Positions 9,153 to 60,029 of a stretch of DNA of 64,000 nt are shown here, piece after piece. The stretch is from Antedon mediterranea (Eukaryota; Animalia; Echinodermata), in contig NC_092671.1 of assembly GCF_964355755.1 (NCBI RefSeq), positions 10,974,001 through 11,038,000 of the forward strand. Reading direction: 5' to 3'. The notes under the pieces were generated by a model that worked only from the letters and a program-made list of their open reading frames with translations, made no database searches and was not told the DNA's origin. The translations under genes were made by a program, and so were the position numbers. The first letter of the stretch is position 1. Every line of letters starts with the position of its first letter.

Positions 9153-9429
9153 ATGTCTAGTCGTAAGAAGAAGAAAAAAGAACTTGAACGCTTCAAATCC
9201 GAACTAAAGTTACGCGACTTACGCGATGACGTCATTGAAATCTTAATTAACGAAGGATTCAGTCGTTTGTCCGATTTACGAGGTTTGGAAGTGGAAGACT
9301 TGGATAAAATACAAAATCTTCAACTGGCACAGTATGTGATTTTGAAAACAAAAATTAAAGAGAAATGGAGTAAGGTGTATGACATGGAGAGCAGCAGTGA
9401 TGGTGAGAGCACAGTAGAAAATGTTGAAG
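9153..9429 (+). other. SAM-like domain exon (paralog A; B copy at 20424-20703)
   Basis: FKSELKLRDLRDDVIEILINEGFSRLSDLRGLEVEDLDKIQNLQLAQYVILKTKI fits the SAM pattern L..egi.....L..L...DL..l.l..g....l...i. Confidence 0.6.
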
Positions 9430-12400
9430 GTAAAGAGTAAAACCTGGAAAGATGTAATTTATTAAAACGATGTTATTTCATTTACATATTTTTTAAATGA
9501 TTTTATAAGGATTAGGCCTACAAGAAAAAAGGATGCAAAATTTGCTAAGAGTTAACAAAGAAAAATTAGCATACTGTACTATACTGTACAAACCCACTAA
9601 TAACAGCCTATCCTATAAATGTATTCAGTATACCGTATCGGCTTACATTAAAAAAATATTCTAAATCACAAATATTTTTCTGAAAGAATGCATTGTCCTG
9701 GTGTGTGGATATTTGCATATATATTATTTTTAACGTAATTAGGTCTACTGTTACAAATGTTTTAAATATCCGAACGTTCCTAGATTAGAGGTAGATATTA
9801 CGTATTATTCAATTCAATAATTACAACTTATTATCTGCCTTGAACAGAAAAATATGAGCCGGAATTGGAATCCAGAAAAAGGCAGAAGAAGCACAAAAGA
9901 AACTCTTCGAAAGAAGGTCTTGATAGTGGTACTTCAAGCTCTAAAACGGAAGATCACAAAGCTTCGGGTCAACGAACAGGGGTCAAGAGTAAAGCTTCAA
10001 CTCAAACCAAACCCGACAAAACTTCGGATATAGAGAGTGGCCAAAATACACAAGATAACACTCGCGCCCAAAATCCACAAAGTACTGGGGCTGGTGAAAA
10101 AACAGAAATGAAGAGTGATTTTAACAAAAGTAAACCCAAGGAAGACAAACATGACAAAACGTCGGATATAGAGAGTAACCAAAATACACAAGATAACACT
10201 TACGCGCCAAAACCCCAGAGTACTCGGGCTGGTGAAAAACCAGAACGAATGAAGAGTGATTTTAACACAAGTAAACCTAAGGACGACAAACATGAAAAAC
10301 CGTCGACAGAACACGTTTCAGATATTGAAGGTATGATTTTCACAATACTAAGTTTGTGCCCATTTTAACCATGATAAGTCGCCGAATAATCTTATTAATT
10401 TTATATTAAATTAGTAACTGTTAGTCAAATTTTCTTTTTAAATACTCTTCGCAAACAAAATCCAATTATTAAATACCGTAAATATAGAAATAATCATTAA
10501 TATGGTGTTGTGCTTAACTATGTTTGTACCCATAGACGTTGAACAGTCGAACGACTTGATAGAACACTTCAATTGCAATTTAGCTAAAAAGTTTTTCAAA
10601 CAGAAGCGATATGATAAAATGGAAGAAGTGTTGGTTAAAGTGGACAGGCAGACGAAATCAGCATACGGTAGAGGAAGATTCGCCACGAAGATATCACAGG
10701 GGTGTAATGATTTTGCTGAATTACATGACTGCATTAACCATCAGATGACAGATGTCAAAGTTTTGCATGAACTGGCATGTGCGCAGTTCCTTTCCCTTGC
10801 AGAGTCTCACAGAGAGATATTGAAAGAGATGGACATGGACACAGAATGTACTATCTTTACTGAATGGGCTAGTCGCTTAGAAGTGATATTCATGGAGAAT
10901 TCGCCTCTTGAATACGGTTCACTTGAATGGAAAACTGTGATTTCCAAAACAGAGGAAGTGGAAAGGTTTTTTTCATCTCTTCCAATTCCAGCAAGAAATG
11001 TCTCAAAATCATACATTCTGTTAATGTTGCAATTTATTTGCCGTATGTGGCTGTATCGAAATCATCTTATTCCAGAAGATCAATATGGTCTGCTTTTAGT
11101 CGCTACATTCGCTCTTCCGCTGTGTGAATCTGAGCTTGTGACGTCAAAATATTTTTGCGCTGTAAAGCATGACATGTACGTGCACGCTGCAATAACCATC
11201 GGGTGTAATATCTCGAATATGCGGTTAGCTGTTAAAGATTGGTATGATGAATTTTATAGGTTCACAAAAAGATGTGAGCAACTCTACGACGAAGGGCTCA
11301 AAATGAACAAAGATATTAGATCTGAGGATGATACTAGAAACTTGGACAAGTTTACTTCCTGTATGTATAGCTTTATTTGAAAATTATATCTTAATAACAG
11401 GCCTATAGTGTGTTTTATCGTTTGTACAGCTCAGACACCACATTACATGTTTACAGCATTATTCTCTTTATTATACTTTTTTTTTATCGAAATTAATTTG
11501 TTTTTTTAAACATTTATTTTTAAAGTGGTGCAATCACGACTGAAGACAGCTGATCTGCATTTTGGCATATGCCAAGATGACTACATACCAGACAGGACCA
11601 CAGACGAGCACCATAGACTGACTGAGCAAAATATAACCACTATTTTGAGTCATTGGAATGACAAAAGCTATAAAGCCTTCTGCCAGTCTATCACTGACGC
11701 CGAAAATCAACTTAAAGATACTGGTTTTAGGCTACAAGTTGGTAGTTGGTTATCTCCTAGATACAAGGACGCATGTAATGTTTTAAATGGTTCTTATAAA
11801 CAACTTGATAGTTCACAGTCTCTCCTTGACAATCTGCGTGACTATCTCATGGAACTCGTAGTTGACTGCAGGCGACTTCTGAAAGATTTGAAGATCTACA
11901 GCAATGATTCAATGACAGACTGGGTTGAAGTTTTCTCTCGATTTTGTTCCGCTGATGATTGTGTATTTGGATCTTCTGAATGGCATGCAGTATTGGATAG
12001 AGCTAAAACAACAGTAGAAAATATGCCACGAGGAGCAAATATTATCGGACGAACAATTACACAAATGTATGTTCAACTTTTCGTAGAGTTAATGAAGAAG
12101 GCATTTCTAACATATCAGCAAATAACGCCTAAAGACCGACTTGGCCATGTTCGTTTGGCTTTAATTAACATGACAATGGTAAAAAGTCCTCTTCTGTCAA
12201 GTAAATGGTACTCAAGCATGCGATTTAATATATACTTGTGTGGGCTAAGAAGCATAGCATCATGTTTACTAGAAGCTGAGAAGCCTAATAAGGATACGTT
12301 CTATCAAGAATACAAAAACGTAAAAGAAAACATTGACAGTTTAATTGTAGAAAGTCGAAAATTCAAATTGCCGTTTGCCTCAAAGGAAGACTTGGAAAAG

Positions 12401-15400
12401 TTTATAGCTCTCCATAAAGGTAAATACAACAATATATAAATTATAAACCAAACTATTCGAAATATTAAAATATATATTTTATTAGGCCTATTTGTCGTTT
12501 TACTCTAGTAGTAAGCTATACCATTTATTAGTGGTCTCTACTTATATACATTACATACAATGCAACACACATAATATGTCATTAACATATAAAGTATAAT
12601 AATGTTTTTATACCTATCGCCTTTTCCCTGAAAAAAAAATTGATTTGAATTGATTAAAATTTCATTTAAAAACAATTGACTTAAAACAGGCTCTAACACT
12701 TTTATGTCTTTCAAAGACGTCAAGCAAAACATGACTGGTAGGTCACATTCTCGAAGCAAAGTGATTGCATCTGATCCTGATGTATCACGACTTGTTGAAA
12801 CGGCAGTCGCTAAATATCAACAAAAGGACTACGATCAGATGACCAAACATCTAGATGATGGTGAAAAGAAAGATGGATCATGTGATGTGCGATTGGCATT
12901 TGCTGGAAATATTTCTACTGAATTCCATCTTGTTGTCACTTTCAGCAATAATATACCCGAGGATAGTGGACTTTCGACTGTCGAGGAAACTACTCAGAAA
13001 TATTTGCTTTATTTGGCAAATGATCACCAAAATGTAATGAAATGTATGAACGAACGCCTAAGTAAGGATATGAAGACATTAACGGCTGACTTGTTCACGC
13101 TACCAAATGTTATGCCAGGTACTCATTCGTGGATACAACTGGAACGAGATGCCAAAAAGATGGTTCAGTATTTTGAAAGTTTAACCAAGAATGGGCAATC
13201 GGTCACTAAATGCTACATACTGCTTTTCCTGACGGTCATACATAATTTTATCGCAACACGTAACAGACTTCGTAGACCAGAGCATTTTAGACTGCTACCT
13301 TTCATATTGCCTTGCAGACTTATTTGCGAAAGTAAATTACTAGAGTCAAATGCATGGATAAAAACCAAATTTGAAGTTTATGAGGTAGTAGTACTGACAA
13401 CAGGTGCAGCACTTGGAACTGGGCAAATTCCATGTGATCTGCGTTATCCAGATTACTGGAAAATGTATGATGAACTCGTAGAAAGAGGGAAACAGTGTGG
13501 AATTGAACTAACTAATGCTAACAAGCAGGACCACATGGACAGAATGCGCCGGGGTAAGAAAGTAAAATATTTCTTCCGGTACCGTATAAATGTATTCTAA
13601 AAATGTATTAACATACATGTGTAGGCCTATTCATTTGTATTAGGACGTAAAAAACACGGTACTTGTCTAAAAAAAGTTTCACCCTCCTGAAAGAATTACT
13701 GTAACTTTCATTTAAAAATTTGACATACAAAAGCTTAGTTTTCACTCATTTACTAATTTCGTTTTAGATGGATTAAATCTTTGCAATGGCACAGAAGACA
13801 GAATGTGTATCACAGCAGCATTATTGTACCATAGAGCTGGTTGTTATAAAGGACTGATGCTGATATTAAATGCTGCTAATCAAACTAGCTCAGTCCAAAA
13901 TATTAGGATGAACTTTACCATGCGCGTGTCACATACATTTGAGAAATGTGTTGACTATCACAACAAAATCTCCAATGCAAACACTTATGAAGATCTTGTT
14001 GAGAAATCGTATCACTACTTATCCACCACCGCCAAAGATTTTTTGAAGTTCGTTAAGAATATGGGTGAAACAACTTCCAACGACCTAGTATGTTGGGTAG
14101 ACGAAGTCTTTCAAGCAAGAAACGGAAAACCCGAATTATATCCCGTATTGGAAATAGACTCCGTAACCGAGAAATGCAATATGGCATCCGTGTCTATACA
14201 ACGTATGAGTGAAGAAGCTAGATGTATCGCACAGACATATTTAGAATTCTTCATGAGTTTTATCATGAACTTCGTCACAAGACGATATCAATTGCATGTT
14301 AAGAATGTTTACAAGGGTGGATTGAAAATGACACTAGCTGTTATTATGCTGTGTAAAGATGTACTTGTCACATCTAACTTTTCGGTCAAACAAAAACTAG
14401 ACTCATACGGTGTAGCAGCAACATATATGACAGAAATTAGTGGCGGCGATGTTTGGACAGACAAAATGGAATTTGTTCTAAATGAACTTCCTAACCTAGA
14501 ACAACAGCGCAAACAGTTTGACGAAATATGCAGAAAGAGGGAAAGACAAAAAAAAGGGTAAGTATCAGTTCAGTTTTGGGGTGAAGGCCTAGGAAGGGGT
14601 TAATTTGATCATATTATTGATTTAATAAATTCCATGCAAACTATATAATTACTATTACTGTGACAAAATAATCTACAACATTCTTTTATTTGATACATAT
14701 TAAAGAATCACATTGTCAAAAGTCTTCCAAATCAAAAGTCTATGCAACCATTTGTAAGTTTGATATCCGTTTTTTTTTTTATTCTGTAAGTGTGGCCTAA
14801 CAATGAAAGACAAACTGAACAAAGCAAGACAAATGAGCAGAAACGGATTGCTGGCCTAAATACAATTACACGCAATAGTAAGTCAAATGCACCTGTATTA
14901 AAAACTATTGATTGTACTACCAGCTATTAAAGATTTCAGATTCATGTGTAAAATGTACATTTTAAATTTTAAACACCGTTTAGAATTAGAAAAAAGTACA
15001 GTTCATTTTATTTTATCTTTGGCTTTATTATTTGGGTGGCAGAGGGCTGTCTTCTTTTACCGCCCATTGGCACGTTTGCTTTGCCGGAATTAATTTTAGG
15101 AAATAGTAATAAAACAACATGGGTATACATTACCGAGTTAAACATAGTTATGGTATTTGAAACATTTAAGTTACTAACATCAGAATGTAATTATAGTAAT
15201 ACGTTTGGCATCACATCATCATCATCACAAACATTGTTCAAGTCAAAATACACAGAGAGTATTGTTTCCCAATGTGTAATGCAATGTCACTAACATTTTT
15301 GTTTTCCTCATTTCAGATGATTACCAGGCTGATGTAAGATACTTATTTGTTTACCAATAGTAGGCATTAATATAAAATAGTATTTTATACATTATCTATA

Positions 15401-15804
15401 GATATTTACCATGTTATTGCATACATGAACATGATTATGACTTGTTATTACAGAATATTATGAAACAAAAAAAATTGTTGGGAAATAATGAATACGAGTA
15501 CGAACACATCCTCAGTTGGAACACCTTTTCTACAGTATGCATACACTTGGACGTTACTAATGAAGCAAGACGCGACTGGAGAGCACTTGCTGGAGAGATG
15601 GGAGTACACGCTCAGACAATTGAAGCTTGTCTTCAAAGTAAAGATAACCCTACAAAAACACTTCTCGAGATTTTATTTAATCGAAATAAAGGTAAACCAC
15701 GGGAAGATGTATTGCTGGAACTCGCCGATATGTTAAAGAAATGCAAACTTGGCTATGCTGCTGACTTGGTTCAAAATGATATTCAAATGCCTTTTACAGA
15801 CTAG
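9153..15804 (+). CDS. Paralog A: SAM-like / charged linker / four ~270-aa helical repeats / death domain; +1 frameshift at the end of exon 6 as assembled
   Basis: Exons 9153-9429, 9848-10330, 10536-11360, 11526-12419, 12717-13553, 13768-14557, 14791-14877, 15317-15333, 15454-15804. All GT-AG and positionally identical to paralog B. Exon 6 is 790 nt versus 789 in B and C. Confidence 0.85.
10015..10295 (+). repeat. Coding tandem repeat, 138-bp (46-aa) period, 2 units in exon 2 of A
   Basis: GACAAAAC[T/G]TCGGATATAGAGAGT starts at 10015 and 10153. Exon 2 of B has only one unit. Confidence 0.85.
15454..15804 (+). other. Death-domain exon (MyD88/IRAK-type pattern); paralogs at 26465-26818 and 59691-60029
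   Basis: CIHLDVTNEARRDWRALAGEMGV..QTIEACLQSKDNPTKTLLEIL...LLELADMLKKCKLGYAADLV shows the DWR.LA..MG / PT..LL / L...L...AD.V death-domain pattern. Confidence 0.8.
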
Positions 15805-16854: not shown

Positions 16855-16995
16855 GATTGTGTAATTCTGTTTAAAGATCATCCTCACTTTTTATTTAGAA
16901 GGCAGCTTCAGCAGCTTGGTCCAAAACACTAAAAACGATGACGACGATGCTGATATTGAATGATGTCATGTTAGCCGTATTAAAGGAGACATTTT
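16855..16995 (-). pseudogene. Degenerate duplicate of the VPS16 terminal exon and adjacent intron
   Basis: AGATCATCCTCACTTTTTAT..GAAGGCAGCTTCAGCAGC..TCCAAAACACT..GATGACGACGATGCTGATATTGAAT matches 61121-61240. Confidence 0.8.
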
Positions 16996-17315
16996 AAATT
17001 GTATTTACTAATTTTTTTCTCTCTTTCCTGAATTTATTAGGCACTATTAACGGTTTTATGAATTTCGAGACTATATGCCCTATAATGACTAACGGGTTTA
17101 GAACTAAGAGGAGGGCTATAAAAAAAAGGCGAGCCCGGTATTATCAAAATGGCGCAAAGTTGTAAACATGGGTTTGAATTTGAGTTTTGAACAAATCGAT
17201 TTTGATAAAGTGCCAATAAAATCAATGATGGTTGATTGCATGTTTATTGTAAGAGTTTTTGGAATCTAGGGACCAAATGAGTAGAGCATCAAGGAAAGGG
17301 ACGCTTAATAATACA

Positions 17316-18655: not shown

Positions 18656-20279
18656 CAGGGGTGGCGCCAGGATCTTCCCGACGCGGGGGCTACATTCCCC
18701 GATGAGGGGGCTATGCGAGCGAAGCGAGCATCACTAGGCTGGGGGGACAGGGGGCCGCGAAGGGCCCCCGGTGGGGGTCCAGGGGGCGAAGCCCCCGGAA
18801 GCAACGCGTTCTAGCGTCATTTGAGGTCATTTTAATCAGATTTAGGGTAGCCATTTTTTCCGTTTTTTATAATGCATAAATAAAATACTGCGTGCAAAAA
18901 AACGATGCGCGATGACTGTTTCAATCCATATTTTTCAATTTAAAAAATAAAAGTTCAAAGAAAAGAGTTGGAGGTCCCGGAAATTGGACTTATTATACTT
19001 CAAAACATGAAACAAAATATATAAGTCCCTATCATGGTTGTGACTGAGCTAAGAAATGTTTAAAAAATAGAGATGTTAGGTCCCGGAAAATGCACTTCTT
19101 GTACTTCGAAATATGACCAGCTTTATTATTGGGCAGGGCTGAGCTAAGAAACTGTTTAAAACTAGAGCTGCAGGTCTTCAAAAAATTGCATTTTATACTT
19201 TGGAAACATCAGGCCTAGAGGCTTAAAAAACGCAAGCGTAGACCTTGTTTAGTCGGGGAAATAAAGTTTATTCCTCCCAAGTGTATGCGTGCGTACCACC
19301 ACCTGGACTTCCGAGTGGTGAGAAATTCATGACATACAGGACATTGAAAATGTAATAACTTAGCTATAATAAGATGTTGGCTAAGCGAAAATGGCATGTT
19401 TTTTTGTTTAGTAATGGATGAAAAATTTATTTTAGGTGCCCCACGGTAGAGAAGGTTACTTGTAAATTAAAAAATTGGTGAACATACGAACAATTAACAT
19501 AATTTGTTTTTGCTGTAGTGTAGCGTACGTCGACGCAGTACACGACGTAACCGTCAGTAAACTTCGCCTGGAAAATAACTACAGTACACATTTTTGGTCC
19601 CTGGATGGAACATGATATCACGCGTCTCGACCCAACGTTGAACGATTCGTACAAAGGGATACCGCCAGACAAGTGCGAACCTAGCTATTGTTTAGTAGTA
19701 AGTTAGATCGCTGGCAATAATGGATGCATATAAAGTGCATAATATCACTCTGACGTACTCTCACAGTCAATGAAACCTCGCGGTTTTCTAGGCGCTGAAG
19801 CTAGCTACGAAGTGAACGCGAACGCTTTTTACTGTATATTATATTCCCCGACAAAAAGTACCCGTGTTCCCTTCGGTAACCGTCGGTAAACTTCGCCTGG
19901 AAAATAACTACATTACACATTTTGGTCCCTGGATGGAACTTGATATCACGCGTCTCGACCCAACGTTGAACGATTCGTACAAAGGGATACCGCCAGACAA
20001 GTGCGAACCTAACTATTGTTTAGTAGTAAGTTAGATCGCTGGCAATAAAATGCATATAAAGTGCATAATATCACTCTGACGTACTCTCACGGTCAATGAA
20101 ACGTCGCGGTTTTCTAGTAGTAGTATACGCGCTGAAGCTAGCTACGAAGTGAACGCGAACGCTTTTTACTGTATATTATATTCCCCGACAAAAAGTACCC
20201 GTGTTCCCCGATGAGGGAGGCTAGGCTCCCCGACGAGGGGGCTAGAGCCCCCGTAGCCCCCCCGCTGGCGCCACCACTG
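18656..20279. mobile_element. Non-autonomous hAT-type transposon (~1.6 kb) just upstream of the first coding exon of paralog B
   Basis: TIR CAGGGGTGGCGCCAG / CTGGCGCCACCACTG. 8-bp TSD GTAGCAGC (18648-18655, 20280-20287). Internal ~330-bp tandem duplication (~19547-20210). Empty site in paralog A at ~9010. Confidence 0.9.
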
Positions 20280-20423
20280 GTAGCAGCATTTAGGTTCGTT
20301 ATAAATAGGTATTACCTATGTGAGTGCAAATTTAAGTAAAGATTTGCATTAAATGATCCAGGCAAAAACTCATGACACATAGTACTATTCTTATGTTTGC
20401 ATATTATTAGGAGATACGCAAAA

Positions 20424-26400: not shown

Positions 26401-26818
26401 AGATCTATAGATATTTACCATGATATTGCATACATGACCATATTATTATGACTTGTTATTACAGGATTTTATGAAAAAAGAAATATTGTTGGGAAAAAAT
26501 GGAAAATACGAGTACGAACACATTCTCAGTTGGGACACCTTTTCTACAGTATGCATACACTTAAACACCACTCGTGCCTTTTCACAAGATTGGAGAGCAT
26601 TTGCTGATGAGATGGGAGTAAAAACTGAGACAATTGAAGCTTGGCTTCAAAGTAGAGGTAACCCTACAAACACACTGCTCGAGATTTTCTTTAATCGAAA
26701 TAAAGGTAAACCACGGGAAGATATATTGCTGGAACTCGTCGATACGTTAAAGACATGCAAACTTGACAATGCTGCTGACTTAGTTGAGAAGGATATTCAA
26801 CGGAATTTTAAAAACTAG
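20424..26818 (+). CDS. Paralog B: intact ~1480-aa SAM-like / linker / four helical repeats / death-domain protein
   Basis: Exons 20424-20703, 21153-21503, 21696-22520, 22708-23601, 23893-24729, 24955-25743, 25962-26057, 26322-26338 (17 nt), 26465-26818. Total 4443 nt, open throughout. Introns are phase 1 except the last (phase 0). Confidence 0.88.
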
Positions 26819-48300: not shown

Positions 48301-51300
48301 CAGATAACTACAGAATATCTATTCGTTTTCTTAAAGTGTTTGAATCACGACGGAAGACAGCTGATGTGAATATTTACAGTATTCAGGCTGGTGAAAAAAC
48401 AGAACTGATGAAGAGTAAGTTTAACACAGATACACCCAAGGACAACAAACAAGAAACAACAACGAAAAAACACGTTTCAGATATTGAAGGTATGATTAGA
48501 GAGTTAATTTTAACAACTCTCATAATAGTAAGTTTGTACCCATGTTATTCAAAAGAATCAAAGCAAGAATAGTCTTTTATATTACTTTAGTACTGTGGTC
48601 TTAACTATGTTTGTACCCATAGACGTTGAACTGTCGTACGACTTGCTAGGACACTTCAATTGCAATTTAGCTGAACAGTTTTTCAAACAGAAGCGATATG
48701 ATAAAATGGAAGAAGTATTGGTTAAAGTGGACAGGCAGACGAAATCAGCATTTGGTAGAGGAAGATTCGCCACGATGATATCACAGGGGTGTAATGATTT
48801 TGCTGAGTTACATGACTGCATTAACCATATGATGACAGACGTCAAAGTTTTGCATGAACTGGCATGTGCGCAGTTCCTTTCACTTGCAGAGTCTCACAGA
48901 GAGATATTGAAAGAGATGGACATGGAAACAGGATGCACTATATTTAATGACTGTGCTAACCACTTACATGCAATATTCATGGAGAATTCGCCTCTTGAGT
49001 ACGGTTCACTTGAATGGAAAAATGTGATTTCCAAAACAGAAGAACTGGAAAGGTTTTTTTCATCTCTTCCAATTCCAGCAAGAAATGTCTCAAAATCATA
49101 CATTCTGTTAATGTTGCAATTTATTTGCCGTATGTGGCTGCTTCGAAATCGAATTATTCCAGAGGATCAATATGGTCTGCTTTTAGTCGCTGCATTCGCT
49201 CTTCCACTGTGTGAATCTGAGCTTGTGGCGTCAAAATATTTTTGCGCTGTAAAGCATCACATGTACATGCACGCTGCAATAACCATCGGGTGTAATATCT
49301 CTAATCTGCGGCTACCAGTGAAAGATTGGTATGATGAATTCACTAGGTTCACACAAAGATCTGAGCTACTCTACGACGACGGTCTCAAACTGCAGAAGAA
49401 TATTCGATCTGAGGATGATACTAGACAATTGACCATTAAAACTCGTACGTATGCCTCCTATAAATTATATTACGTTATATATTCCTTAATCCATGGTGTA
49501 TATTGGAAATAATAAATAATTCCGATAATACGTATTCACTGTAGTGAATGTTTTAAGTGTGAAATTATAACCACAACACATTTGTTTACTATAGTCAAGA
49601 GGGATTCATCTCATTTTATTAATATCAAAATAGCAGCCAAAGTTTGAAATAGTGAATGAATTGATACATGATTACATGATACGTACAGATATAAAACAAT
49701 CACTAGTATTGTAGTTTAATAGTGGGTGTATAGAAAACTCAGATCTAGAAAACTCAGATCTCCGATATATCTGAGTTTTCTAGATCTAGAAAACTCAGAT
49801 ATCTGACTTTTCTAGATCTAGCAAACTCAGATAGCAAGATCTGAGTTTTCTAGTTCCAAAATGGAACTAGAAAACTAGAAAATATTATTTAACGATCGTT
49901 AAATTAAATTAAGTGCTATTGCACGCCATGTGTGACCAACAATCGTTCAATCAAATGACAGGAATTTATAATATAATGTGTATACGGTAGAGGATATTTT
50001 TTGGGTTAGGTTTATCAGGGTAGCTGGCCAGTCGGTATTCACCGCACATATGTAATTTTTGCATAATCTAGTACTTACGTTTGTTCTTAATTCTATTTCA
50101 TTGCCTGCATGGTCATTTATTTTCTATGTTTTAATTACCTGTTTTTTCTCTAAAGTGGTTGACTTAAGACTGAAAACAATCCAAGATAAATACACACCAG
50201 AGAAGACAACAGACGAGCAACTGATAGAGGCAAATCTGAACGCTATTTTGAATCATTGGAATGACAGCTTTGACAAATTCAGTCAAGGAAACACAGAGGA
50301 TCTTTCGGAAGTTGTAGCTGCCACCAAGCGACTACTGATAAACTGGAATAAGATTAGAAGTAATCTGGAAGTCTGGAATAATCTGCGTGTAAAGAAAGTT
50401 AAGGATGACGCATACACAGGTCAATAGCAAAGTGCAATTTACCATTAACAAGGCCAACAGCCATTAAGTCGCGTGCTACAATGCATAGTGATACCGGACC
50501 GACAGACAGACCGACAGACAGACAGACCGACCGACCGACATAGTGAACTATACTGACCGAAATAAACATGTTTAAAAATGTTGAGATGTTTAAAAACATT
50601 TATATTTTTTAAATTTACACGTGCGTAGCCTGTCACTTTTGACGTGCTCGTATAACGTAATTTCGAGTTGAAAAGTAAGTCAAGAAAACAGAAATCGGGC
50701 AAAACGAGTGCGCAAAAACATTTAACGCGCAGTGCGCGCGCAAAAATATGCGCGCAATCATGGCAATTTTGTAAACGCTTAAAATTGCCTGAAATGTACA
50801 CTTATTTCATCGAAAATAAATTTTGAAAATTTTAAGCGCGCGTACGCATGCGTTACATGCGCTACGCACGTAATTGTATTGCCATATGATGATTACATGC
50901 GCTACGCACGTAATTGTATTGCCATATGATGATTTATGCCCTGAAATTTATGAGTACCAAATTTTATTTAATTGTGATTCATGGTTGTGAAGATATGATT
51001 ACAAACGTGATTTCGTTAAATCGTGCGTAGACCACGTAATTTTTTATTGCGCACCGTGAAAACATAACCACATTGATTCCTGGCCATAAGGAATATACTG
51101 TGAAAAATTGACCTAGCTAGATTAAACTGATATCAAGATAAGGTCAGAAAGCGATAAAACGCATAGTGATACCGGACCGACAGACCGACAGACCGACAGA
51201 CAGACCGACCAACCGACCGACATAGTGAACTATAGAGTCGCTTCCACGCGACTAAAAATGTCATGACAATAATACAAAATAGACAAATAAGGCCTGGGGA

Positions 51301-54300
51301 ATTCATAATACAGTACCTCTCATTCAATTCAGTTTGATTTTATTCCTTTTGTTTTTCGGCGCCCAACTTTGTAATCTATATGACAAAATATAATAGCATA
51401 GTAGAACAATAATCATCTTTAGTAACTTTAACCTAAAATAGTAATAATGTGTCTTTCTTTTCTTTCTTTTGTTTACCCATTTTACAAAATAAATACCATG
51501 TTCGAACATACTATATCTATTTTTTTAATAGATAATAATAATGACAATTGACGTATTTTATGAGATTCATAATTTACAAAAATATCACTATCAAAATAAT
51601 TTATGTTAGGGATATATTCCTTTCTCAGTTTCTTATAAAAAGAACGAAAATGTCGTCCTCTTCCCGCACAGTAGGCCCTAATAACAAAACAAACACAATC
51701 TATTTTCACTAGTAATATTCAAATGACGGCCTCTTTCAATTAATAGATGGGCTTGGCATAAGGAATCTTGAGATTGTTGTTTAAAAGTTTAAAATTTAAA
51801 TGATATGTTAATGGAATGTTTAACATGCAAATACTTGTAATGAAATATCCCGAACCACATCTGTTTTACAGAAAGGGTATACCTTATTCCTAGAAAGAAA
51901 TTCACGGGCGAGTTCCACATACACCCAAATCCAAGCCAATCTAAAATGGATTTAATTTCAGATGTCCATCTTAATTCTTCCATTTTCAGTCCACATTCTT
52001 TGTTTTTTTGGTAGCATATTTAATTTAATACAGTCATTTAGGCCTATCATTTTAAGAAAATAATGACATTAATAGGAACCTTGTTGAACCGTGAAATGTG
52101 CAAACACTTTGCCCTCCGAATATGCAAACAACAGTTTTGACCAAGACATTTTGCACCATTTGGTTGATGAATTCCTTCCATTCCATGCGCTTCGCGTTCT
52201 GAAATCTCCAACGATCTAGCCAATTTATCAATATTATCCAAAGACATGTCCTCCTGTAGAGCTCGTCTGTGAACCTTTTTTTTTCGGCCGTCTTGAATTA
52301 TCTGATGCTTCATCTCTGCATCCATTGGATCCTGGTTATCTATACCATAGTTACTAATTAATCTGCGTAAACGAGAACGAATTGGTCCAGGTTTTCCCTT
52401 TCGTGTTGCACAGTATTTCGAAAATGCAAATTTCATACTCCGTATTCTTTTTGGGCAAGAAATAATCTTCAAACACCTTGACTTGTTTCATATACACGTC
52501 ATCATCTCCATCAGCAGTACTAATGTTTCATTCATGTCGAACACATTTCCACCTCCTCTATCTAAAAGTAAAGCTCTTTTTGCTCCGAGTTCATAATTTT
52601 CCAAGCCACCAGGCTATTTTTAAAACGGGCCAGTCATCTTTTCTATCGTGTGGCAAGTGTACTTGACTCGCCATATGTACGTCAAAGGGAGTTACATAAG
52701 CCAATAAACCAGGCTGCACCACCATAATTACGTATCCTCGTCGTCAATGTAATATATCGACATAAAACATTGTTACCGCCTGATGGAAATGATGACATGT
52801 ATAAGAAACAAGTCAAGGAACGACACATACAACGACGTGAAGGTACAAATAGACAATCAAGCTATAGTTATGTAACGTTTTGATTATGGTATAATATAAG
52901 GCAATGTATGTTTTATGTCTTATAAAGCCGTCAAACAAAATATGACTGGTAGGTCATATTCTCGAAGCAAACTTATTGCACCTGATCCTATTGTATCACG
53001 ACTTGTTGACGCGGCAGTGGATAAATATCTCAAAAGGGATTACGATCAGATGACTAAATATCTAGATAATGCTGAAGAGAAAGATGGATCATGTGATGTG
53101 CGATTGGCATTTGCTGGAAATATTTCTACAGAATTCCATCTTATTGTCACTTTCAGCAATAATATACCAGAGAAAAGTGGACTTGCGACTGTCGAGGAAA
53201 CTACTCAGAAATATTTGCTTTACTTGGCAAATGATCACCAGAATGTAATGAAAGATATGGAAGAAAACTCAAGTGACACTATGAAGACACTAACGGTTGG
53301 CCTGTTCACGCTGCCAAATGTCATGCCCGGTACACATTCGTGGATACAACTGGAACGAGATGCCAAACAGATGGTTCAGTATTTCGAAGGTTTAACCAAG
53401 AGTGGCCAATCGGTCACTAAATGCTACATACTGCTTTTCCTGACGGTCATACACAACTTTATCGCCACACGTAACAGACTTCGTAGAGGAGAACATTTTA
53501 GACTGCTACCTTTCATATTGCCTTGCAGAGTTATTTGCGAAAGCAAATTACTAGAGTCAATAGCGTGGATAAAAACCAAATTTGAAGTTCATGAGGTAGT
53601 AGTACTGACAACAGGTGCATCACTTGGAACTGGACAAATTCCATGTGAACCACGTTATCCATATTACTGGAAAATGTATGATGAACTAATAGAAAGAGGG
53701 AAACAGTGTGGGATTGAACTAACTGATGCTAACAAGCAGGAACACATGGACATTGTGCGGCAGGGTAAGAAAGTCATCATTATTTTTTTCGGTACCGGCA
53801 TACCGGGTTTCAAGGTTGTCATAGCCGGGAGTGGTATTGGGGTTAAGCTCCCTTTACCTAAAAAAATGCTCCCATACGGTGTGCGTCTCAAATAGCCTCT
53901 GACAACTAAAAGTCCAACTCCTGGCCTGCACGAATGGCTTAGTTCTTTCTTTAAGCCTGGCGAAACCTGCTTCCTACTGACAGGAGAAGGGACGAAGGCG
54001 AGCCACTGGCGCCTCAAAACCAGAAGCTTACTTGGACAGGTGGAGTTCATCAGCCGTGACAGGCAGTTCACCTAGGAGAAGGAAAACTCTGATTTTAAAC
54101 CTCCGCTGCCTTGCGGCTATATCCATCCTGGAAAAGGCTTCAGGAGTAAACCTCAAGGACAAATCCGGAGTGAAGCCCCTAAGGCGGTTTGGAACATTGA
54201 CTCAATCTCCTTCCGGCAGCTTCTGCAGCCAAACTGGTACCATACGTATTGCTCTGCTCTCCTATGGACTTTATCGGTAAAGGCCGAGAGGGGGATTCTG

Positions 54301-57300
54301 CTGACTGGGCATCGCAGGGTCCCCATATTTTTCTTCGCCCAGGCGTGCGCCCTGGAGAGGTCACTTCAGTGCTGTTGTAAGAAACGGCTAAAATCAACAC
54401 GGGAGACAGCAGTTTACGAGTGATAAGCCAAGACCAATTGGCGTAGGTCAAGGCGCTACGGGTTGTCTCCGTCGGTGGGAGGGACCATCGCAGTCCCACT
54501 GGTCAGCTATCGCCCGCCTCAAGCCGAGCAGCCCTCGGCCAGTAAGATGCTGACCCGCCACAGTCTGCCTGCTTCAATGGGTGCTTGGAGCTTAGGATTC
54601 TTCCGACAAGCGGACTGTAACTACTGCACCAGGCAAAAGATTAAAGAAAAGACTAAAGAATACTACCTTGCGATTTGCAAGCTGGAATGTCAGGACCATG
54701 TGTCCTGGCTTTTCAAACGACCCACGAACGACCAATGACTTAAGAAAGACAGCTATCATCAACCGTGAGCTCAAGAGGCTCAACATCGATATCGCTGCAT
54801 TACAGGAGACAAGACTCCCCTCGGATGGCAGTATAAGAGAAAGGGACTACACGTTCTTTTGGCAGGGGTTGGAACCTGACCAACCACGACTCCATGGAGT
54901 GGGGTTCGCTGTTAGAAACTCTCTTGTAGCATCAGTCGAACCACCATCCAAGGGCACCGCCCGAATCCTCTCACTCCGCCTATCAACATCTTCGGGCACA
55001 GTAAACATCTTGAGCATCTATGCACCAACTCTTTGCTCAACACCCGAGTCTAAAGATGAGTTTTATGAAGAGCTGGACTCTGCCATCAGAGGAATCTCAG
55101 ACACAGAACATCTGTATTTGCTTGGCGACTTCAACGCCCGTGTGGGATCTGACCATTATTCCTGGCCCAGGAGCATCGGACATTTTGGTGTAGGAAGACT
55201 AAATGAGAATGGCCAGAGGCTTCTGGAGCTCTGCAGTTATCATGACCTCTGCATTACCAACACATTCTTCTCCACCAAGCCTCAGCACAAAGTGTCCTGG
55301 CGACATCCAAGATCTCACCACTGGCATCAACTAGATCTCGTCATCACTCGAAGATCTTACTTAAACTACGTAAACATCACTCGCAGTTACCATAGTGCAG
55401 ACTGCGATACTGATCACTCTATGGTGCGCAGCACAGTGTGTCTCAAACCAAAGCAAATTCATCGCTTCAGGCACATAGGATGCCCACGCATCAACACAGC
55501 TAAGACCAATCTGCCAGACCTGTGCGCTCGTTTTGCCCAAACCATCGATAAAATGCTGAAAGACTGTCCAAAAGCCAACTCTGAAATGAGATGGGCTCAT
55601 ATTCGTGATGCCATCTATACCTCCGCCAAAGACATCTTCGGCGTGAAAGAGAGGAAAACCCCTGATTGGTTTGAATCAGGAATTTCTGCGATGGAGCCAG
55701 CTTTAGAGGCAAAGCGTGCAGCGCTAATTGACTACAAAAGAGACCCTTCAGAAAGAACACTAGAGGCTCTTCGTAAAGCTAGAAATAACTCTCAAAAGAT
55801 AGCTCGACAGTGTGCCAACCAATACTGGTTGAACCTCTGTCAAGATATTCAACTCTCTGCTGATCACGGCAACACTGGCGCCATGTACGCTGGTATAAAA
55901 AAGGCCTTTGGACCTAGTGCAACGAAGATCGCACCATTAAAGACCGCCTCTGGTACCATCATAACTGATCGTGGAAAGCAGATGGAGAGATGGGTAGAGC
56001 ATTACCAACAACTCTACTTGAGAGAAAACATTGTCACTGACTCAGCCATTGAGTGCATAGATTCTCTCCCCATAATGGAAGAGCTCGACAATCCACCTAC
56101 ACTGGCGGAACTAAGCAAGGCCATTGATATCTTGGCTTGCGGTAAAGCCCCAGGAAAGGACGGTATCCCACCAGAGGTCCTCAATGCTGGTAAACGCTCC
56201 ACATTATTACTACAAAACCTACACGAGCTTCTGCTACAATGCTGGGAAGAAGGCTCAGTACCCCAGGATATGCGTGACGCAAACATTGTTACACTGTATA
56301 AGAACAAAGGCGATCGCAGCGACTGCAACAACTATCGTGGAATATCCCTTCTTAGCATAGTGGGTAAAGTCTTCGCACGTGTTGTACTAACTAGATTACA
56401 ATCACTTGCAGAACGTGTCTATCCTGAAGCCCAGTGCGGCTTCAGAGCTGGAAGATCAACCATCGACATGATATTCTCAGTGAGACAACTGCAAGAAAAA
56501 TGCCGTGAGCAGAGGCAGCCCCTGTACATTGCCTTCATAGATCTAACGAAAGCCTTCGACCTTGTCAGTAGGAAAGGTCTCTTCTCCCTACTACAAAGGA
56601 TCGGATGTCCTCCAAAGCTTCTGGGGATAATCACCTCCTTTCACGAAGACATGCACAGCGTTGTGCAGTATGATGGCTCATCTTCAGATCCTTTTCCCAT
56701 CAAGAGTGGAGTAAAGCAGGGGTGCGTTCTCGCGCCTACACTCTTCGGCATATTCTTTTCCCTGTTACTATCATATGCCTTTCGTCAGTCAAATGAAGGA
56801 GTCTACCTACATACTCGAAGTGACGGAAATCTCTTCAACCTTGCCCGCTTTCGCGCAAAGACCAAGGTGCGACGTCTACTTATTAGAGAGTTGCTCTTCG
56901 CTGATGACGCTGCCATCACAGCCCACAGTGTAGAAGCACTCCAGCGCCTCATTGACTGCTTCTCACATGCATGCGAGGAGTTTGTCCTTACCATCAGCCT
57001 TAAGAAAACGAACGTTCTAAGTCAAGACGCAGCCAATGCTCCTCCTAAGATCAAAATCGGCGATTATACTCTTGAGGTGGTGGACAAGTTCATTTACCTT
57101 GGTTCCACTGTTTCCAGTAACCTCTCATTTGACGCCGAACTCAACATCAGGATTGGAAAAGCGACATCAGCCATGGCTCGCCTAACAGATAAGGTTTGGA
57201 AAAACCGCATGCTGACTATAAACACCAAGATGAAGATCTACCAGGCTTGTGTCCTAAGCACCCTATTGTACAGCAGTGAATCATGGTCTCTTTACACCCG

Positions 57301-60029
57301 CCAAGAGCGCAGATTGAGTTCATTTCATCTGCGCTGCCTGAGAAAGATACTCGGCATCAAATGGCAGGATCATGTCTCAAATAAAACCGTTCTAACTCGG
57401 GCAAGTTTGCCCAGCATGTACTCACTACTTACCCAGAGACGCCTTCGATGGCTGGGCCATGTAAGGCGCATGGATGACGGAAGAATACCAAAAGACTTAC
57501 TCTATGGTGAGCTTGTCACTGGAACTAGACCTAAAGGAAGGCCCATGTTACGCTTTAAAGACGTATGCAAGCGTGATCTTAAGTCGGGCAACACAAACGT
57601 CACAAACTGGGAGGCTGTTGCCTCCGATCGCAGTATGTGGAGATCCACTATCAAGATGTGTGTCCAAACAAGCGAGAGTGGACGCGACAAGAAACGGACG
57701 CTACTCAAGAAACGTAGAAAGGAGAGAGCATCCTCTGCTCCAACCGATCAGGAGCCAACGTACATCTGCCCAAAATGTGACAAATCATGCCGCTCAAAAA
57801 TTGGACTTTTTAGTCACAGCAGGCGCTGTGACCCTGCACCGAATGACGGATAGAGGGCGCATACCTATTGTCCCTCGAGACAGACGGCTGCCAATAAAAA
57901 AAACCGGCATTTATCTGCATATTAATTTGTATTAAGTTTTAAAAAATACGGTAGTTATTTTAATAGAGTTTGTGTATGATTCTCTATAAACGCACGTTTC
58001 GCACTTTTGAAAGTACTGTAACATTTTGTTTTTCAAATAATAATTATGAATAAACTTTTTTTTTAAATCTTAGTAGCATATTTAAATGGTCTTTTATTTA
58101 TTTACTTACATAAATAAATACATTTCTATCTTTTTAGAGGGATTAAATCTTTGCAACGGAACAGAAGACAGAATGTGTATCACAGCAGCATTATTGTACC
58201 ATAGAGCTGGCTGTTATAAAGGACTGATGCTGATACTAAATGCTGCTAATCAAACTAGCTCAGTCCAAAATATTAGGATGAACTTTACCATGCGCGTGTC
58301 AGATACATTTGAGAAATGTGTTGACTATCACAACAAAATATCAGATGAAAACACATATGAAGATCTTGTTGAGAAAACGTACCACTACTTATCCACCGCC
58401 GTCAAAGATTTTTTGAAGTTCGTTGAGAACATGGGTGAAAAAACCTCTAACGACCTAATACTTTGGGTAGACGAAATCTTTCAAGCAACAAACGGAAAAC
58501 CAGAATTATATCCCGTTCTGGAAATAGAATCAGTAACCGAGAAATGCAATATGGCATCCGTGTCTATACAACGTATGAGTGAAGAAGCTAAATGTATCGC
58601 ACAGACATATTTAGAATTCTTTATGAGTTTTATTATGAACTTCCTTTCAAGACGATATCAATTGCATGTTAAGAATGTTTACACGGGTGGATTGAAAATT
58701 ACACTAGCGGTTATTATGCTGTGTAAAGATGTACTAGTGACGTCTAACTTTTCCGTCAAACAAAAACAGCACACATACATTGTAGCGGCAACATATATGA
58801 CAGAAATTAGTGACGGCGATTTTTGGACAGACCAAATGGAATGTGTTCTAAATGAACTTCCTAACCTAAAACTACAGCGTAAAAGGTTTGATGAAATATG
58901 CAGAAAGAGGGAAAGACAAAAGAACGGTAAATATCAGTTGACGTTTTTGGGGTGTAGGAGGGATAATTTGATCATAGTATTGATTTTATAAAATTCCATG
59001 CAAACTATATAATAAGTATTAATGAGGTAAATAATCTACAACATGCTTTCATGCGATACATATTAGAGAATCACATGGTCAAAATTAATGCAAAACAAAA
59101 GTCTATGCAACAATTTGTAAGTTTGATATCCATATTGATATGCTATATTTTTTTATAAGTGTGGCCTAACCATGAAAGACAAACTGAACAAAGCAAGACA
59201 CAGGATCAGAAACCATGTGAACGGAACACAAAGATTGTCTTTAGTAAGTCAAATGCACGTGTATTGAAAACTATTGAGTTTAGTCTTCTTTTGCCATCCA
59301 TTGGCACACTAAAGCTTGTTGTTAACCTTTGCCGAAATTATTTAATAAAACAACATAAGTAGGTCATATATATTACAGAGTTAAACATACACTAGTTATA
59401 GTGTTTAAAACATTTAAGTTTAGTAAGAGTATGTAATTACGAATAAATTTTGGCTTTAATAACACACATTGTTTAAGTTAAAATACACAGTGAGTATTGT
59501 TTCTCAATGTTTAATGCAATGTAACTAACATTTTGTTTTCCCCCATTTCAGGTGGTGACCAGGTTGATGTAAGATACTTACTTGTTTACCAATAGTAGGC
59601 CCTAATATAAACGATATTACTTTATACATATATCTATGGATGTTTACCATGTTATTGCATACATGACCATGTTATGACTTGTTATTACAGAATATTATGA
59701 AAAAAGAAATATTGTTGGGAAGGAATGAAGGATACGAGTATGGACACATCCTTAGTTGGAACACCTTTTCTAGAGTATGCATGCACTTGGACGTTACTAA
59801 TGACGCAAGACGTGACTGGCGAGCACTTGCTGAAGAGATGGGAGTAAAAGCTGAGACAATTGAAGCTTGTCTTCAAAGTAAATACAACCATACAAAAACA
59901 CTGCTCGAGATTTTCTTTAATCAAAATCAAGGTAAACCACGGGAAGAAATATTGCATGAACTCGTCGATATGTTAAAGACATGCAAGCTTGGCCGTGCTG
60001 CTGAATTAGTTGAGAAAGATATTCTATAA
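32783..60029 (+). CDS. Paralog C (predicted chimera, ~1693 aa): DED-DED / linkers / TIR-like / TRADD-N-like / TIR-like / Pro linker / helical repeats / death domain
   Basis: Exons 32783-33350, 34512-34565, 36629-36691, 37257-37328, 38267-38587, 39180-39482, 40406-40729, 40925-40996, 48337-48489, 48623-49444, 50156-50419, 52928-53764, 58138-58926, 59160-59243, 59552-59568, 59691-60029. Each is open and GT-AG bounded; all introns are phase 1 except the last. The join across 40997-48336 is inferred. Confidence 0.7.
33682..34108. mobile_element. Tc1/mariner-pogo type MITE
   Basis: 25-bp TIR CCGTATTTATTCGAATAAACGTCCC / GGGACGTTTATTCAAATAAATATGG, with TA on both flanks. Confidence 0.8.
37720..37890 (+). 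mobile_element. Short LINE 3' remnant (Rex1-like)
   Basis: KDPTHPLHYCYHFNRSGIRLR motif, similar to the HPLH segment at 7090-7210. Confidence 0.45.
38267..38587 (+). other. Short TIR-like domain exon 1
   Basis: CDVFIVTAYLKWEKKIYNKLNKRG...YVIA...LIPVPINDGDSLP...ILYDSDDEDLLCEDILTEI resembles TIR box 1 (DVFI..W...L..G) and the betaD (lIPv...P) region. Confidence 0.5.
39180..39482 (+). other. TRADD-N-like domain exon
   Basis: GSSIIFYLTVNDANNLKRFWSMYVNKEIVRYLAELL...LKTFIDEDEYLR fits the gS+il.+.....L..lW..Y..g.l...L...IdEeeY pattern of invertebrate TRADD-N-like domains. Confidence 0.55.
40406..40729 (+). other. Short TIR-like domain exon 2 (paralog of 38267-38587)
   Basis: CDVFIVTKDIRWEKRVYRKLEERGHQGYKIEKTHCKFVIVQDHNDEEH...LIPVPIQDGDPLPTLQKQCVLGWLGDDEDSLCDNM. 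Open, phase 1-1; only its second half appears in the ORF track. Confidence 0.55.
41550..43344 (-). mobile_element. Decayed DNA-transposon remnant with one Academ-like terminus
   Basis: Right end reads TAGTGGAGTCTGTTAGGGCTGAAATAAGG...ATTTGCATAAT on the - strand. TGACCTTTGACC motifs are shared with the neighbouring element. No matching second end found. Confidence 0.4.
43420..43692. repeat. TTACAAAGTGCGACA satellite array, left part (93-bp higher-order unit x ~3)
   Basis: Direct tandem repeats; the array continues at 47644-47872 on the other side of the insertion. Confidence 0.9.
43693..47643. mobile_element. Academ-like (XPG + Cys-rich) defective DNA transposon with ~1.5-kb inverted arms
   Basis: Termini TAGACAGGTTCCATTTC / GAAATAGAACTTGTCTA; 3-bp TSD AAA inside TTACAAAGTGC. 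Arms ~43736-45248 and ~46041-47610. Broken - strand ORF with HEESDTRL, RDTDV, SGCDTT, LPPTSDA..H..AH.Q..W and CGCK..C...RC.CKK..LPCT.LC.C. Each arm has a ~59-bp minisatellite. Confidence 0.8.
45434..45488. mobile_element. 55-bp micro-MITE (hAT-type) inside the Academ-like transposase remnant
   Basis: TIR CAGTGAAGATTTAAATTAC / GTAATTTAACTCTTCCCTG (19 bp, 2 mismatches). 8-bp TSD GATATGAG at 45426-45433 and 45489-45496. Confidence 0.8.
47644..47872. repeat. TTACAAAGTGCGACA satellite array, right part
   Basis: Same unit as 43420-43692. Confidence 0.9.
49730..49882. repeat. Direct and inverted TAGAAAACTCAGATC repeats
   Basis: The unit occurs in both orientations (TAGAAAACTCAGAT / ATCTGAGTTTTCTAG). 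Confidence 0.75.
50430..51258 (+). mobile_element. Interspersed repeat with GACA/GACC microsatellites and a terminal hairpin (Helentron/HINE-like, unclassified)
   Basis: Two GCATAGTGATACCGGACCGACAGAC...CATAGTGAACTATA blocks; ends TAGAGTCGCTTCCACGCGACTAAAAA. Segment 50619-50675 recurs at 29521-29574. Confidence 0.55.
52100..52877 (-). mobile_element. Gypsy-type LTR retrotransposon 5' remnant (short LTR, PBS, decayed gag)
   Basis: - strand: candidate LTR 52877-52748 ending ATATTACA, followed by the PBS-like TGACGACGAGGAT. Gag-like RLRRLISNY...MKHQIIQ...RRALQEDMSLDNIDKLARSLE. Confidence 0.65.
53802..57902 (+). mobile_element. Apparently full-length RTE-clade LINE in an intron of paralog C
   Basis: TSD ACCGGCAT (53794-53801, 57903-57910). 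~860-bp GC-richer leader, single long ORF, short 3' UTR ending CCAATAAAAAAA. The orthologous introns of A and B are empty. Confidence 0.93.
54668..57853 (+). CDS. RTE ORF: apurinic-like endonuclease + reverse transcriptase + C-terminal C2H-type zinc finger
   Basis: SWNVRT, LQET, GDFNA, TDH (EN); KAPGKDG, NYRGISLLS, FIDLTKAFD, GVKQGCVLAP, LFADD, YLGS (RT); CPKCDKSCRSKIGLFSHSRRC. No stops over 1061 codons. Confidence 0.95.
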   Translation: MRFASWNVRTMCPGFSNDPRTTNDLRKTAIINRELKRLNIDIAALQETRLPSDGSIRERDYTFFWQGLEPDQPRLHGVGFAVRNSLVASVEPPSKGTARILSLRLSTSSGTVNILSIYAPTLCSTPESKDEFYEELDSAIRGISDTEHLYLLGDFNARVGSDHYSWPRSIGHFGVGRLNENGQRLLELCSYHDLCITNTFFSTKPQHKVSWRHPRSHHWHQLDLVITRRSYLNYVNITRSYHSADCDTDHSMVRSTVCLKPKQIHRFRHIGCPRINTAKTNLPDLCARFAQTIDKMLKDCPKANSEMRWAHIRDAIYTSAKDIFGVKERKTPDWFESGISAMEPALEAKRAALIDYKRDPSERTLEALRKARNNSQKIARQCANQYWLNLCQDIQLSADHGNTGAMYAGIKKAFGPSATKIAPLKTASGTIITDRGKQMERWVEHYQQLYLRENIVTDSAIECIDSLPIMEELDNPPTLAELSKAIDILACGKAPGKDGIPPEVLNAGKRSTLLLQNLHELLLQCWEEGSVPQDMRDANIVTLYKNKGDRSDCNNYRGISLLSIVGKVFARVVLTRLQSLAERVYPEAQCGFRAGRSTIDMIFSVRQLQEKCREQRQPLYIAFIDLTKAFDLVSRKGLFSLLQRIGCPPKLLGIITSFHEDMHSVVQYDGSSSDPFPIKSGVKQGCVLAPTLFGIFFSLLLSYAFRQSNEGVYLHTRSDGNLFNLARFRAKTKVRRLLIRELLFADDAAITAHSVEALQRLIDCFSHACEEFVLTISLKKTNVLSQDAANAPPKIKIGDYTLEVVDKFIYLGSTVSSNLSFDAELNIRIGKATSAMARLTDKVWKNRMLTINTKMKIYQACVLSTLLYSSESWSLYTRQERRLSSFHLRCLRKILGIKWQDHVSNKTVLTRASLPSMYSLLTQRRLRWLGHVRRMDDGRIPKDLLYGELVTGTRPKGRPMLRFKDVCKRDLKSGNTNVTNWEAVASDRSMWRSTIKMCVQTSESGRDKKRTLLKKRRKERASSAPTDQEPTYICPKCDKSCRSKIGLFSHSRRCDPAPNDG

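Follow-up and report, generated by a model that had tools for sequence, protein, structure and literature searches.

The window analysed here, 64,000 nt of Antedon mediterranea DNA, carries three plus-strand paralogs, A, B and C, that combine a terminal death-domain (DD) exon with a body of helical repeats matching no characterised protein family, with strong relatives known so far from crinoids alone. Their repeat domain is new and lineage-restricted, in a type of shuffled death-fold protein that is already known; the family varies through birth, frameshift and rearrangement, B being the sole copy of the three with an intact head-core-DD frame.

The DNA of the locus is AT-rich and eukaryotic, its exons match the public A. 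mediterranea protein P0001 at 100%, and self-comparison revealed the three related blocks that correspond to the paralogs (Table 1). Exon boundaries were placed by hand and then script-checked for GT-AG, phase and frame; all the modelled introns are GT-AG (8/8 in A, 8/8 in B and 15/15 in C). The core consists of four all-helical units of approximately 270 aa per gene, each encoded by one exon, and a 17-nt micro-exon occurs in 3/3 paralogs, as does a terminal exon that passes the gathering cut-off of Pfam Death (PF00531; 29.9–34.4 bits vs. 22.6). Splicing and Pfam Death thus confirm the repeat exons, micro-exon and terminal DD exon that an earlier note on this DNA had described as shared by the three paralogs. 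The same note placed every junction up to the micro-exon in phase 1, which is the case in B (7/7) and C (14/14) but in A for 5/7; likewise, of its domain labels, DD lies above the Pfam cut-off, whereas SAM, DED, TIR and TRADD-N all fall below the cut-offs of their families.

Table 1. Coordinates of the features of paralogs A, B and C, counted from the first letter of the window.
Feature	Coordinates	Strand	Basis
Gene A	9153–15804	+	self-comparison, spliced exons
A exon 1, putative SAM-like/HhH-like five-helix head, after N-terminal basic cluster	9153–9429	+	P0001 residues 1–92
A exon 2, low-complexity charged linker and basic cluster	9848–10330	+	splicing
A core repeat 1, 274 aa	10536–11360	+	AF2, 12 helices, pLDDT 79.7
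A core repeat 2	11526–12419	+	splicing, public-protein match
A core repeat 3	12717–13553	+	splicing, public-protein match
A core repeat 4, 790 nt, phase-2 donor, frame shifted	13768–14557	+	splicing
A linker exon, where the shifted frame ends (codon 1372)	14791–14877	+	splicing, P0001
A 17-nt micro-exon, out of frame in the assembly	15317–15333	+	splicing
A death-domain exon, open yet not reached in frame	15454–15804	+	Pfam Death, 32.7 bits
Gene B, 9 exons	20424–26818	+	self-comparison, spliced exons
B exon 1, putative SAM-like head, 98% identical to A	20424–20703	+	splicing
B exon 2, low-complexity linker	21153–21503	+	splicing
B core repeats 1–4	21696–22520, 22708–23601, 23893–24729, 24955–25743	+	splicing
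B linker exon	25962–26057	+	splicing
B 17-nt micro-exon, phase 1 in, phase 0 out	26322–26338	+	splicing
B death-domain exon	26465–26818	+	Pfam Death, 29.9 bits
C-type exons, 16 exons	32750–60029	+	self-comparison, spliced exons
C head exon 1, putative tandem DED-like unit; public start 32783	32750–33350	+	Pfam DED E = 0.079, P0008, P0009
C head small phase 1-1 exon, present in P0009	34512–34565	+	splicing
C head small phase 1-1 exons, predicted, skipped by P0009	36629–36691, 37257–37328	+	splicing
C head alpha/beta unit a (putative 'TIR-like')	38267–38587	+	splicing, P0009
C head TRADD-N-like exon with GS turn motif	39180–39482	+	P0008 match
C head alpha/beta unit b (putative 'TIR-like'), 52% identical to unit a	40406–40729	+	comparison
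C head proline-rich exon, strong donor, last before the 7340-nt gap	40925–40996	+	splicing
Inverted-repeat element with broken transposase-like pieces, between C head and core	43419–47873	.	self-comparison
Chimeric exon: acceptor and first ca. 40 nt from a repeat-2 exon, remainder from the end of exon 2	48337–48489	+	comparison
C core repeat 1, 85% identical to A and B, weak donor	48623–49444	+	splicing
C repeat-2 stub, ca. 50 homologous codons, then unrelated sequence	50156–50427	+	comparison
C core repeat 3	52928–53764	+	splicing
Intact LINE ORF, endonuclease and reverse transcriptase, 1085 aa, intron between C repeats 3 and 4	54596–57853	+	Pfam
C core repeat 4	58138–58926	+	splicing
C linker exon	59160–59243	+	splicing
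C 17-nt micro-exon	59552–59568	+	splicing
C death-domain exon	59691–60029	+	Pfam Death, 34.4 bits

The core exons are repeats of each other (best BLASTP E ca. 1e-13, in a small database); the units span 262–297 aa and are approximately 17–29% identical between positions and 84–97% between paralogs. The AF2 model of a core repeat is all-helical, with 12 helices (pLDDT 79.7, pTM 0.80). Most of the 22 most conserved columns are aromatic or aliphatic; a few hold Arg, Ser or Lys, but His, Asp and Glu are absent, and the core therefore appears to lack an obvious catalytic set; additionally, the Walker A motif is absent from the six proteins scanned and there was no NTPase Pfam match.

The core, which had been reported as unrecognised, stayed so in our searches. 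Nothing above cut-off was found in Pfam, NCBIfam (0/12) or PADLOC (0/12), the best PDB sequence match had E = 0.024, and Foldseek with the core model yielded no match at E ≤ 0.001 in PDB (at least 500 at E ≤ 10) or BFVD (132); the Atlas recognition value of 1672 is under 2300, and its 0.93 matches are therefore weak. Among 48,161 chains compared with VIA-align, 17 reached Z ≥ 8, and the best (Z 9.8, rmsd 3.2, 136/274 aligned) falls below the Z of ca. 13 from which, according to the tool, matches between helical bundles become meaningful. The top rows were mostly TPR/PCI-type or designed solenoids, which suggests a weak resemblance of the modelled core to TPR/PCI solenoids: antiparallel helix pairs superpose over approximately 135–150 residues with the alpha-solenoids 8amz_Q, PlcR (2qfc_A) and 2hr2_A (model positions 51–274, Z 9.4–9.8, rmsd 3.1–4.0), although only about half of the repeat is aligned, with 4–9% identity, the crinoid helices are longer and there is no TPR Pfam match.

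A profile of the 11 repeats of the locus, compared with 1,835,955,588 representatives, retrieved six matches at E ≤ 0.001, and the four at E ≤ 1e-30 (P0003, P0002, P0004 and P0005) are all from crinoids; a bacterial partial protein (P0006) and a nematode repeat protein (P0007), with E ca. 1e-4, were dropped as likely chance matches. Tblastn with the core found no relative in contigs of metagenomic (34 pattern matches) or viral (3) origin. In a tree with 21 repeats from two genera, the repeats grouped by position with support of 99–100, two rows from P0005 forming long branches. Because the repeats group by position, the four-repeat body is older than the split between Antedon and Anneissia. 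The P0002 model ends inside repeat 4. We found no mention of six crinoid accession or locus identifiers in a literature search that covered a minority of subscription journals, nor a paper combining Antedon mediterranea, death domain and immune, and two Anneissia accessions were absent from 12 of the 13 supplement files of PMC8195603.

Selection acts differently on the core and on the DD. Core pairs show dN/dS values of 0.21–0.63, below 1 at p < 0.05 in 8/10 pairs (0.29–0.63 for C repeats 1, 3 and 4 vs. A and B), whereas DD pairs range from 0.80 to 1.27 and none of the three differs from 1; the contrast between core and DD has p = 0.0017 for A–B and is borderline in the two comparisons with C (p = 0.067 and 0.061). 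Among the paralogs, purifying selection is seen on the core but not on the DD, which is the opposite of the pattern for a diversifying LRR-like sensor on a fixed signalling domain. Because the core is conserved and the dN/dS of the DD is approximately 1, the core would be unlike a diversifying LRR-type sensor. The DD exons of A and B (15454–15804 vs. 26465–26818; 84.6% identical) are more diverged than the two preceding introns (88.8% and 91.7%), and together with the A–B value of 1.27 for the DD, not significant, this is a hint of diversifying selection.

The DD is also absent from P0001, P0004 and P0005, of which the Anneissia protein P0004 is a complete homolog, and because of these absences the tail would be at least as variable, and as labile, as the head. 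Given the lack of purifying selection, its loss by frameshift in A and its absence in P0004 and P0005, the DD may be dispensable. The tails of P0004 and P0005 are short, rich in Asn, Gln and beta-branched residues and, by eye, amyloid-motif-like. We considered a RHIM and rejected it: (I/V)Q(I/V/L/C)G, which we take to be the RHIM core pattern, occurs in 0/6 proteins, and neither of the two tails had Pfam matches.

At the other end, the exon heading A and B, described as SAM-like, has weak leads to the HhH/SAM-like fold and no SAM profile match: the Pfam SAM family gave nothing at E ≤ 10 for exon 1 of A and B or for P0004, the nearest profile being the NusA C-terminal repeat at a sub-threshold E = 0.018. 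Nearest matches to the head comprise this repeat, the RNA polymerase alpha CTD and DUF4332, and the nearest Atlas families, at 0.78–0.81 and thus under 0.9, point to the wider HhH/SAM-like fold. Nothing significant was retrieved in PDB sequence searches with the head exons, in which the SAM profile was spread over 727 positions, and a complex prediction with two copies of the SAM-like unit scored 0.00, which gives no answer. Nevertheless, the N-terminus of P0004 contains, before the core, two SAM-like units related to the A/B head (38–42% identity), and the helical pattern is conserved, by eye, in three SAM-like units. From these alignments, a SAM-like head common to A, B and P0004 looks ancestral, and it is likely that the ancestral crinoid body consisted of a SAM-like head and four repeats, with the DD tail as a gained or lost module.

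The sequencing runs compared were contigs; X1 and X3 are from one sample, X6 is from organism B, and X5, which also includes intronic contigs, was treated as RNA by guess. The sixth exon of A has 790 nt, one base more than its counterparts in B and C, so that its donor (14557/14558) is in phase 2 and the linker exon brings a stop at codon 1372. The resulting 1371-aa protein, which has no DD, is identical to the public model P0001. Contigs from X1 and X3 span positions 14522–14677 with 0 differences from the assembly, which rules out an assembly slip and indicates that the extra base is real, while X6 is one base short at 14556 in an A-like copy. Splice-site scoring found no alternative site that would rescue the frame. 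The extra base is probably a recent insertion, and A would now yield a DD-less form, acting as a decoy or else decaying.

Gene B, spliced, is a clean ORF of 1480 aa, its 7/7 phase-1 junctions to the micro-exon being followed by a phase 0 junction into the last exon. Public protein P0003 (Pfam Death, 27.3 bits) matches B from within repeat 1 through the end, and head, core and DD occur together in no public protein, since P0001 is without DD and P0003 begins only within repeat 1. In one X5 contig (presumed RNA; one of four runs), repeat 4 continues directly into the linker exon, with the in-frame B/C form of the junction; this joint is the only direct sign of splicing observed at the locus. We found neither a signal peptide nor a transmembrane helix nor a Walker A motif in B, and no 19-residue window in B or C exceeds a hydrophobicity of 1.9. 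The DNA of A and B is 98% identical in exons 1 and 3 (9153–11360 vs. 20424–22520) but 85–93% in exons 4–7 and 9, a pattern suggestive of recent 5′ gene conversion. Approximately 145 nt upstream of the B ATG there is a 1.6-kb element (18656–20279), presumably hAT-type, with terminal inverted repeats of ca. 16 nt and an 8-bp target-site duplication; it may influence the 5′ end of B, whose public model begins inside repeat 1.

The head of C comprises other modules. Between 33351 and 43400, the AG..GT open stretches of at least 95 codons are just three named head exons, each possible as phase 1-1. The first head exon (32750–33350) had been called DED-DED: its first unit gives a sub-threshold match to Pfam DED (PF01335; E = 0.079, 13.7 bits, cut-off 35.9), but the second gives none, and its two halves are not detectably alike (844/1000 shuffles score as high). 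The exon is 47% identical to residues 503–686 of P0008, an Antedon RING/NHL protein from a different chromosome of the same species, whose homologous unit has a Pfam DED E of 0.17. For the exon labelled TRADD-N-like (39180–39482), the label draws on a match to a P0008 segment (0/500 shuffles as high), which itself hits TRADD-like_N at E = 0.06, below cut-off, and on a turn motif, although the exon had no match in Pfam or PDB sequences. In the TRADD-N superfamily, a tiny residue plus Ser occupies the beta2-beta3 turn (PMC8195603), and in an alignment by eye both the exon and P0008 show GS before a hydrophobic strand. The DED and TRADD-N labels are thus weakly supported by sequence comparison, and because DED-like and TRADD-N-like modules also occur in the unrelated P0008, they appear to be mobile. 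P0008 itself displays two DED-like pairs and TRADD-N-like units ahead of its RING, coiled-coil and NHL domains.

Units a and b are a real duplicated unit (52% identity, dN/dS 0.52), but their TIR-like label is unconfirmed: searches of Pfam, NCBIfam, PADLOC and PDB sequences gave no TIR match, the best being a tRNA intron endonuclease (E = 0.0085), and AF2 modelled the pair at a pLDDT of 39. The public model of the C head is a separate protein of 259 aa, P0009, which omits two of the small exons, splices out 44 nt (38376–38419) within unit a and then stops.

Downstream, C keeps three of the four repeats, repeat 2 being a stub of ca. 50 codons with 47–49% identity to its counterparts; tblastn found no trace of the rest in 49445–52927. 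The stub has a weak donor after 50419 and a stop at 50425–50427. Record 16 of X5 (presumed RNA) begins exactly at the stub acceptor, covers 50156–50473 without differences, passing through the predicted donor and beyond the stop, and has 169 further letters beyond the aligned part. Such read-through would end C at 1018 aa, without DD, although the record may instead reflect a retained intron, as intronic contigs occur in X5 too. The head lies 7340 nt from the core, a distance that includes the 4.5-kb inverted-repeat element, and the chimeric exon at the near side of the core marks a rearrangement. Splice-site scores, trained on A and B and therefore circular for those C exons homologous to A/B, rate both the donor of the last head exon and the acceptor of the chimeric exon as strong. 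No core or SAM remnant was found between head and core. Likewise, no head-plus-core protein appeared in homolog searches, which were word-based and length-limited, nor a head-core splice among the contig joints listed, in a region crowded by repeats. Organism B (X6 records 22–23) also holds the repeat-1/stub region of C. The 16 C exons can be chained into an ORF of 1704 aa, with 14/14 phase-1 junctions. Transcription of the head-core fusion is conceivable, at somewhat less than an even chance, and the full 1704-aa product is unlikely. C is a rearranged copy adjoining, and possibly spliced to, a mobile DED/TRADD-N-type head.

Mobile elements and gene fragments accompany C. The element at 43419–47873, which we take to be Academ-type, is near-palindromic, with 1.5-kb arms that are 92% alike; inside it are tandem repeats and broken transposase-like pieces that contain CXC, and it had no Pfam match. 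The LINE (about 53790–57910) is apparently intact, in sense orientation within the C intron and with a short flanking duplication. Between B and C there are frameshifted partial copies of the DED-like exon (31519–31886, 95% identical) and of the DD exon (27861–28029). Gene C is flanked by the 3′ exons of a VPS16 gene on the minus strand (61033–63140; Pfam Vps16_C in two exons), and a stretch overlapping the presumed last VPS16 exon recurs behind gene A (16875–17014), so the duplicated unit extended into this neighbour. The other flank contains a small minus-strand gene (1650–3436) with Gln/Gly/Tyr/Pro-rich repeats at 3101–3436 and probably a short hydrophobic exon near 1700–1830.

Large repeat or helical bodies with polymerising or homotypic modules at their ends are found in SARM1 (ARM-SAM-SAM-TIR) and in the C-terminal-DD scaffolds PIDD1, ankyrins and THOC1. 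The crinoid family differs from these in domain order and in having no ARM, LRR, ANK, ZU5/UPA or THOC1 Pfam match, and an enzymatic TIR, as in SARM1, is without support in it. Unlike NLR, STAND and SAMD9 proteins, with their P-loop NTPase, it shows Walker A in 0/6 proteins. In the SAMD9/SAMD9L family, death-superfamily domains take the place of the N-terminal SAM in some members, on a large body that includes TPR repeats (PMC5445408); the crinoid family, with its putative SAM-like head on a large helical-repeat body, resembles this arrangement. However, SAMD9 contains AlbA, Sir2-like, STAND NTPase and OB domains, for which the crinoid proteins have no Pfam matches, while the crinoid body consists of four repeats of ca. 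270 aa, without Walker A and with a C-terminal DD. Lineage-specific expansions of DED plus TRADD-N, in the DEDD2 and NCOA6 clades, are described for marine invertebrates (PMC8195603); the C head resembles these in its DED-like unit, its TRADD-N-like exon with turn motif and its nearby transposons, and P0008 joins DED/TRADD-N-like modules to RING/NHL like the TRIM fusions listed in that paper. In contrast to what is described there, the variable partner in C would be the new helical repeat, in a predicted fusion, and two alpha/beta units intervene. Similarly, shuffled death-fold/TIR genes are described for amphioxus and sea urchin (PMC2575513); both these and the crinoid genes are novel homotypic-domain combinations in a marine deuterostome, but the former combine known domains (NACHT, TIR, caspase, SAM) and the crinoid core belongs to no known family.

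How these proteins might work is best considered from B. There is about an even chance that the B-type protein is an intracellular, NTPase-free adaptor for cell-death or immune signalling, in which the putative SAM-like head would cluster by self-association, the four helical repeats, as modelled, would serve as a scaffold for binding or autoinhibition, and the C-terminal DD would recruit a DD partner leading to cell-death or immune signalling. The SAM identity, self-association, partner binding by the core and the pathway we infer from established death-fold biology. Against this reading, the leads to the HhH/SAM-like fold would also fit nucleic-acid binding, and C-terminal DDs are also found in non-immune proteins. 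A nuclear or chromatin/RNA scaffold, with a head binding nucleic acid, basic clusters for import and the DD as a decaying accessory, is accordingly worth weighing but improbable: A and B do have clusters with at least four K/R in five residues, N-terminally, within exon 2 and where repeat 4 ends, as does the C head, and the nearest head matches, the DD dN/dS close to 1 and the three DD-less proteins all agree with it, yet P0002 and P0004 have no such clusters, the DD exon is open in 3/3 paralogs, and recent tandem duplication with DED/TRADD-N proximity would fit defence genes better.

That there is one functional, B-like gene, with A and C as young pseudogenes or truncated copies and C in chance juxtaposition to a DED gene, is a minority possibility. 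The frameshift in A, the chimeric exon, lost repeat 2 and LINE and DNA-element insertions of C, and the broken DED and DD exon copies at 31519–31886 and 27861–28029 speak for it, but organism B is without the extra base in its A-like copy and also holds the C repeat-1/stub region, and the core exons of A and C are open with dN/dS below 1. It covers A and C and is compatible with B as an adaptor. We consider less likely the sensor family advanced by the earlier note, with heads exchanged by phase-1 exon shuffling and C as a working DED-DED/TIR-like/TRADD-N/TIR-like-core-DD fusion of ca. 1700 aa. In its favour, the 16 C exons form one ORF with 15/15 GT-AG and 14/14 phase-1 junctions, strong donor and acceptor face each other across a gap devoid of core or SAM remnants, C repeats 1, 3 and 4 have dN/dS of 0.29–0.63 vs. 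A and B, and DED+TRADD-N units with variable C-termini occur in marine invertebrates, echinoderms included (PMC8195603). The swappable heads, however, come down to a single event, in C, with no family-wide pattern, and the head-core joint found no support in P0009, which ends at 259 aa, or in homolog searches, which gave no head+core protein; furthermore, the junction is 7340 nt long and includes the 4.5-kb element, the repeat-2 stub has a weak donor, with X5 record 16 passing the stop to leave 1018 aa without DD, and the TIR label is unsupported. A broader version, namely a new class of NTPase-free proteins for innate-immune or cell-death signalling, built on the previously undescribed ca. 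270-aa helical domain with both ends phase-1 shuffled, C having swapped SAM for a DED-DED/TRADD-N head via the chimeric exon and A being a DD-less regulator of B, is slightly more doubtful still.

Domain shuffling of this kind has already been described (PMC8195603, PMC2575513, PMC5445408). The core itself, an exon-sized domain for which the structure prediction is good, matches no family and no fold clearly, and is conserved in two crinoid genera. If B-type proteins do signal through their DD, it would be a new body type beside LRR, NACHT and ARM in death-fold adaptors; and, if the C fusion is transcribed, it would provide a datable case, with a visible breakpoint, for the origin of new death-fold architectures in marine invertebrates.
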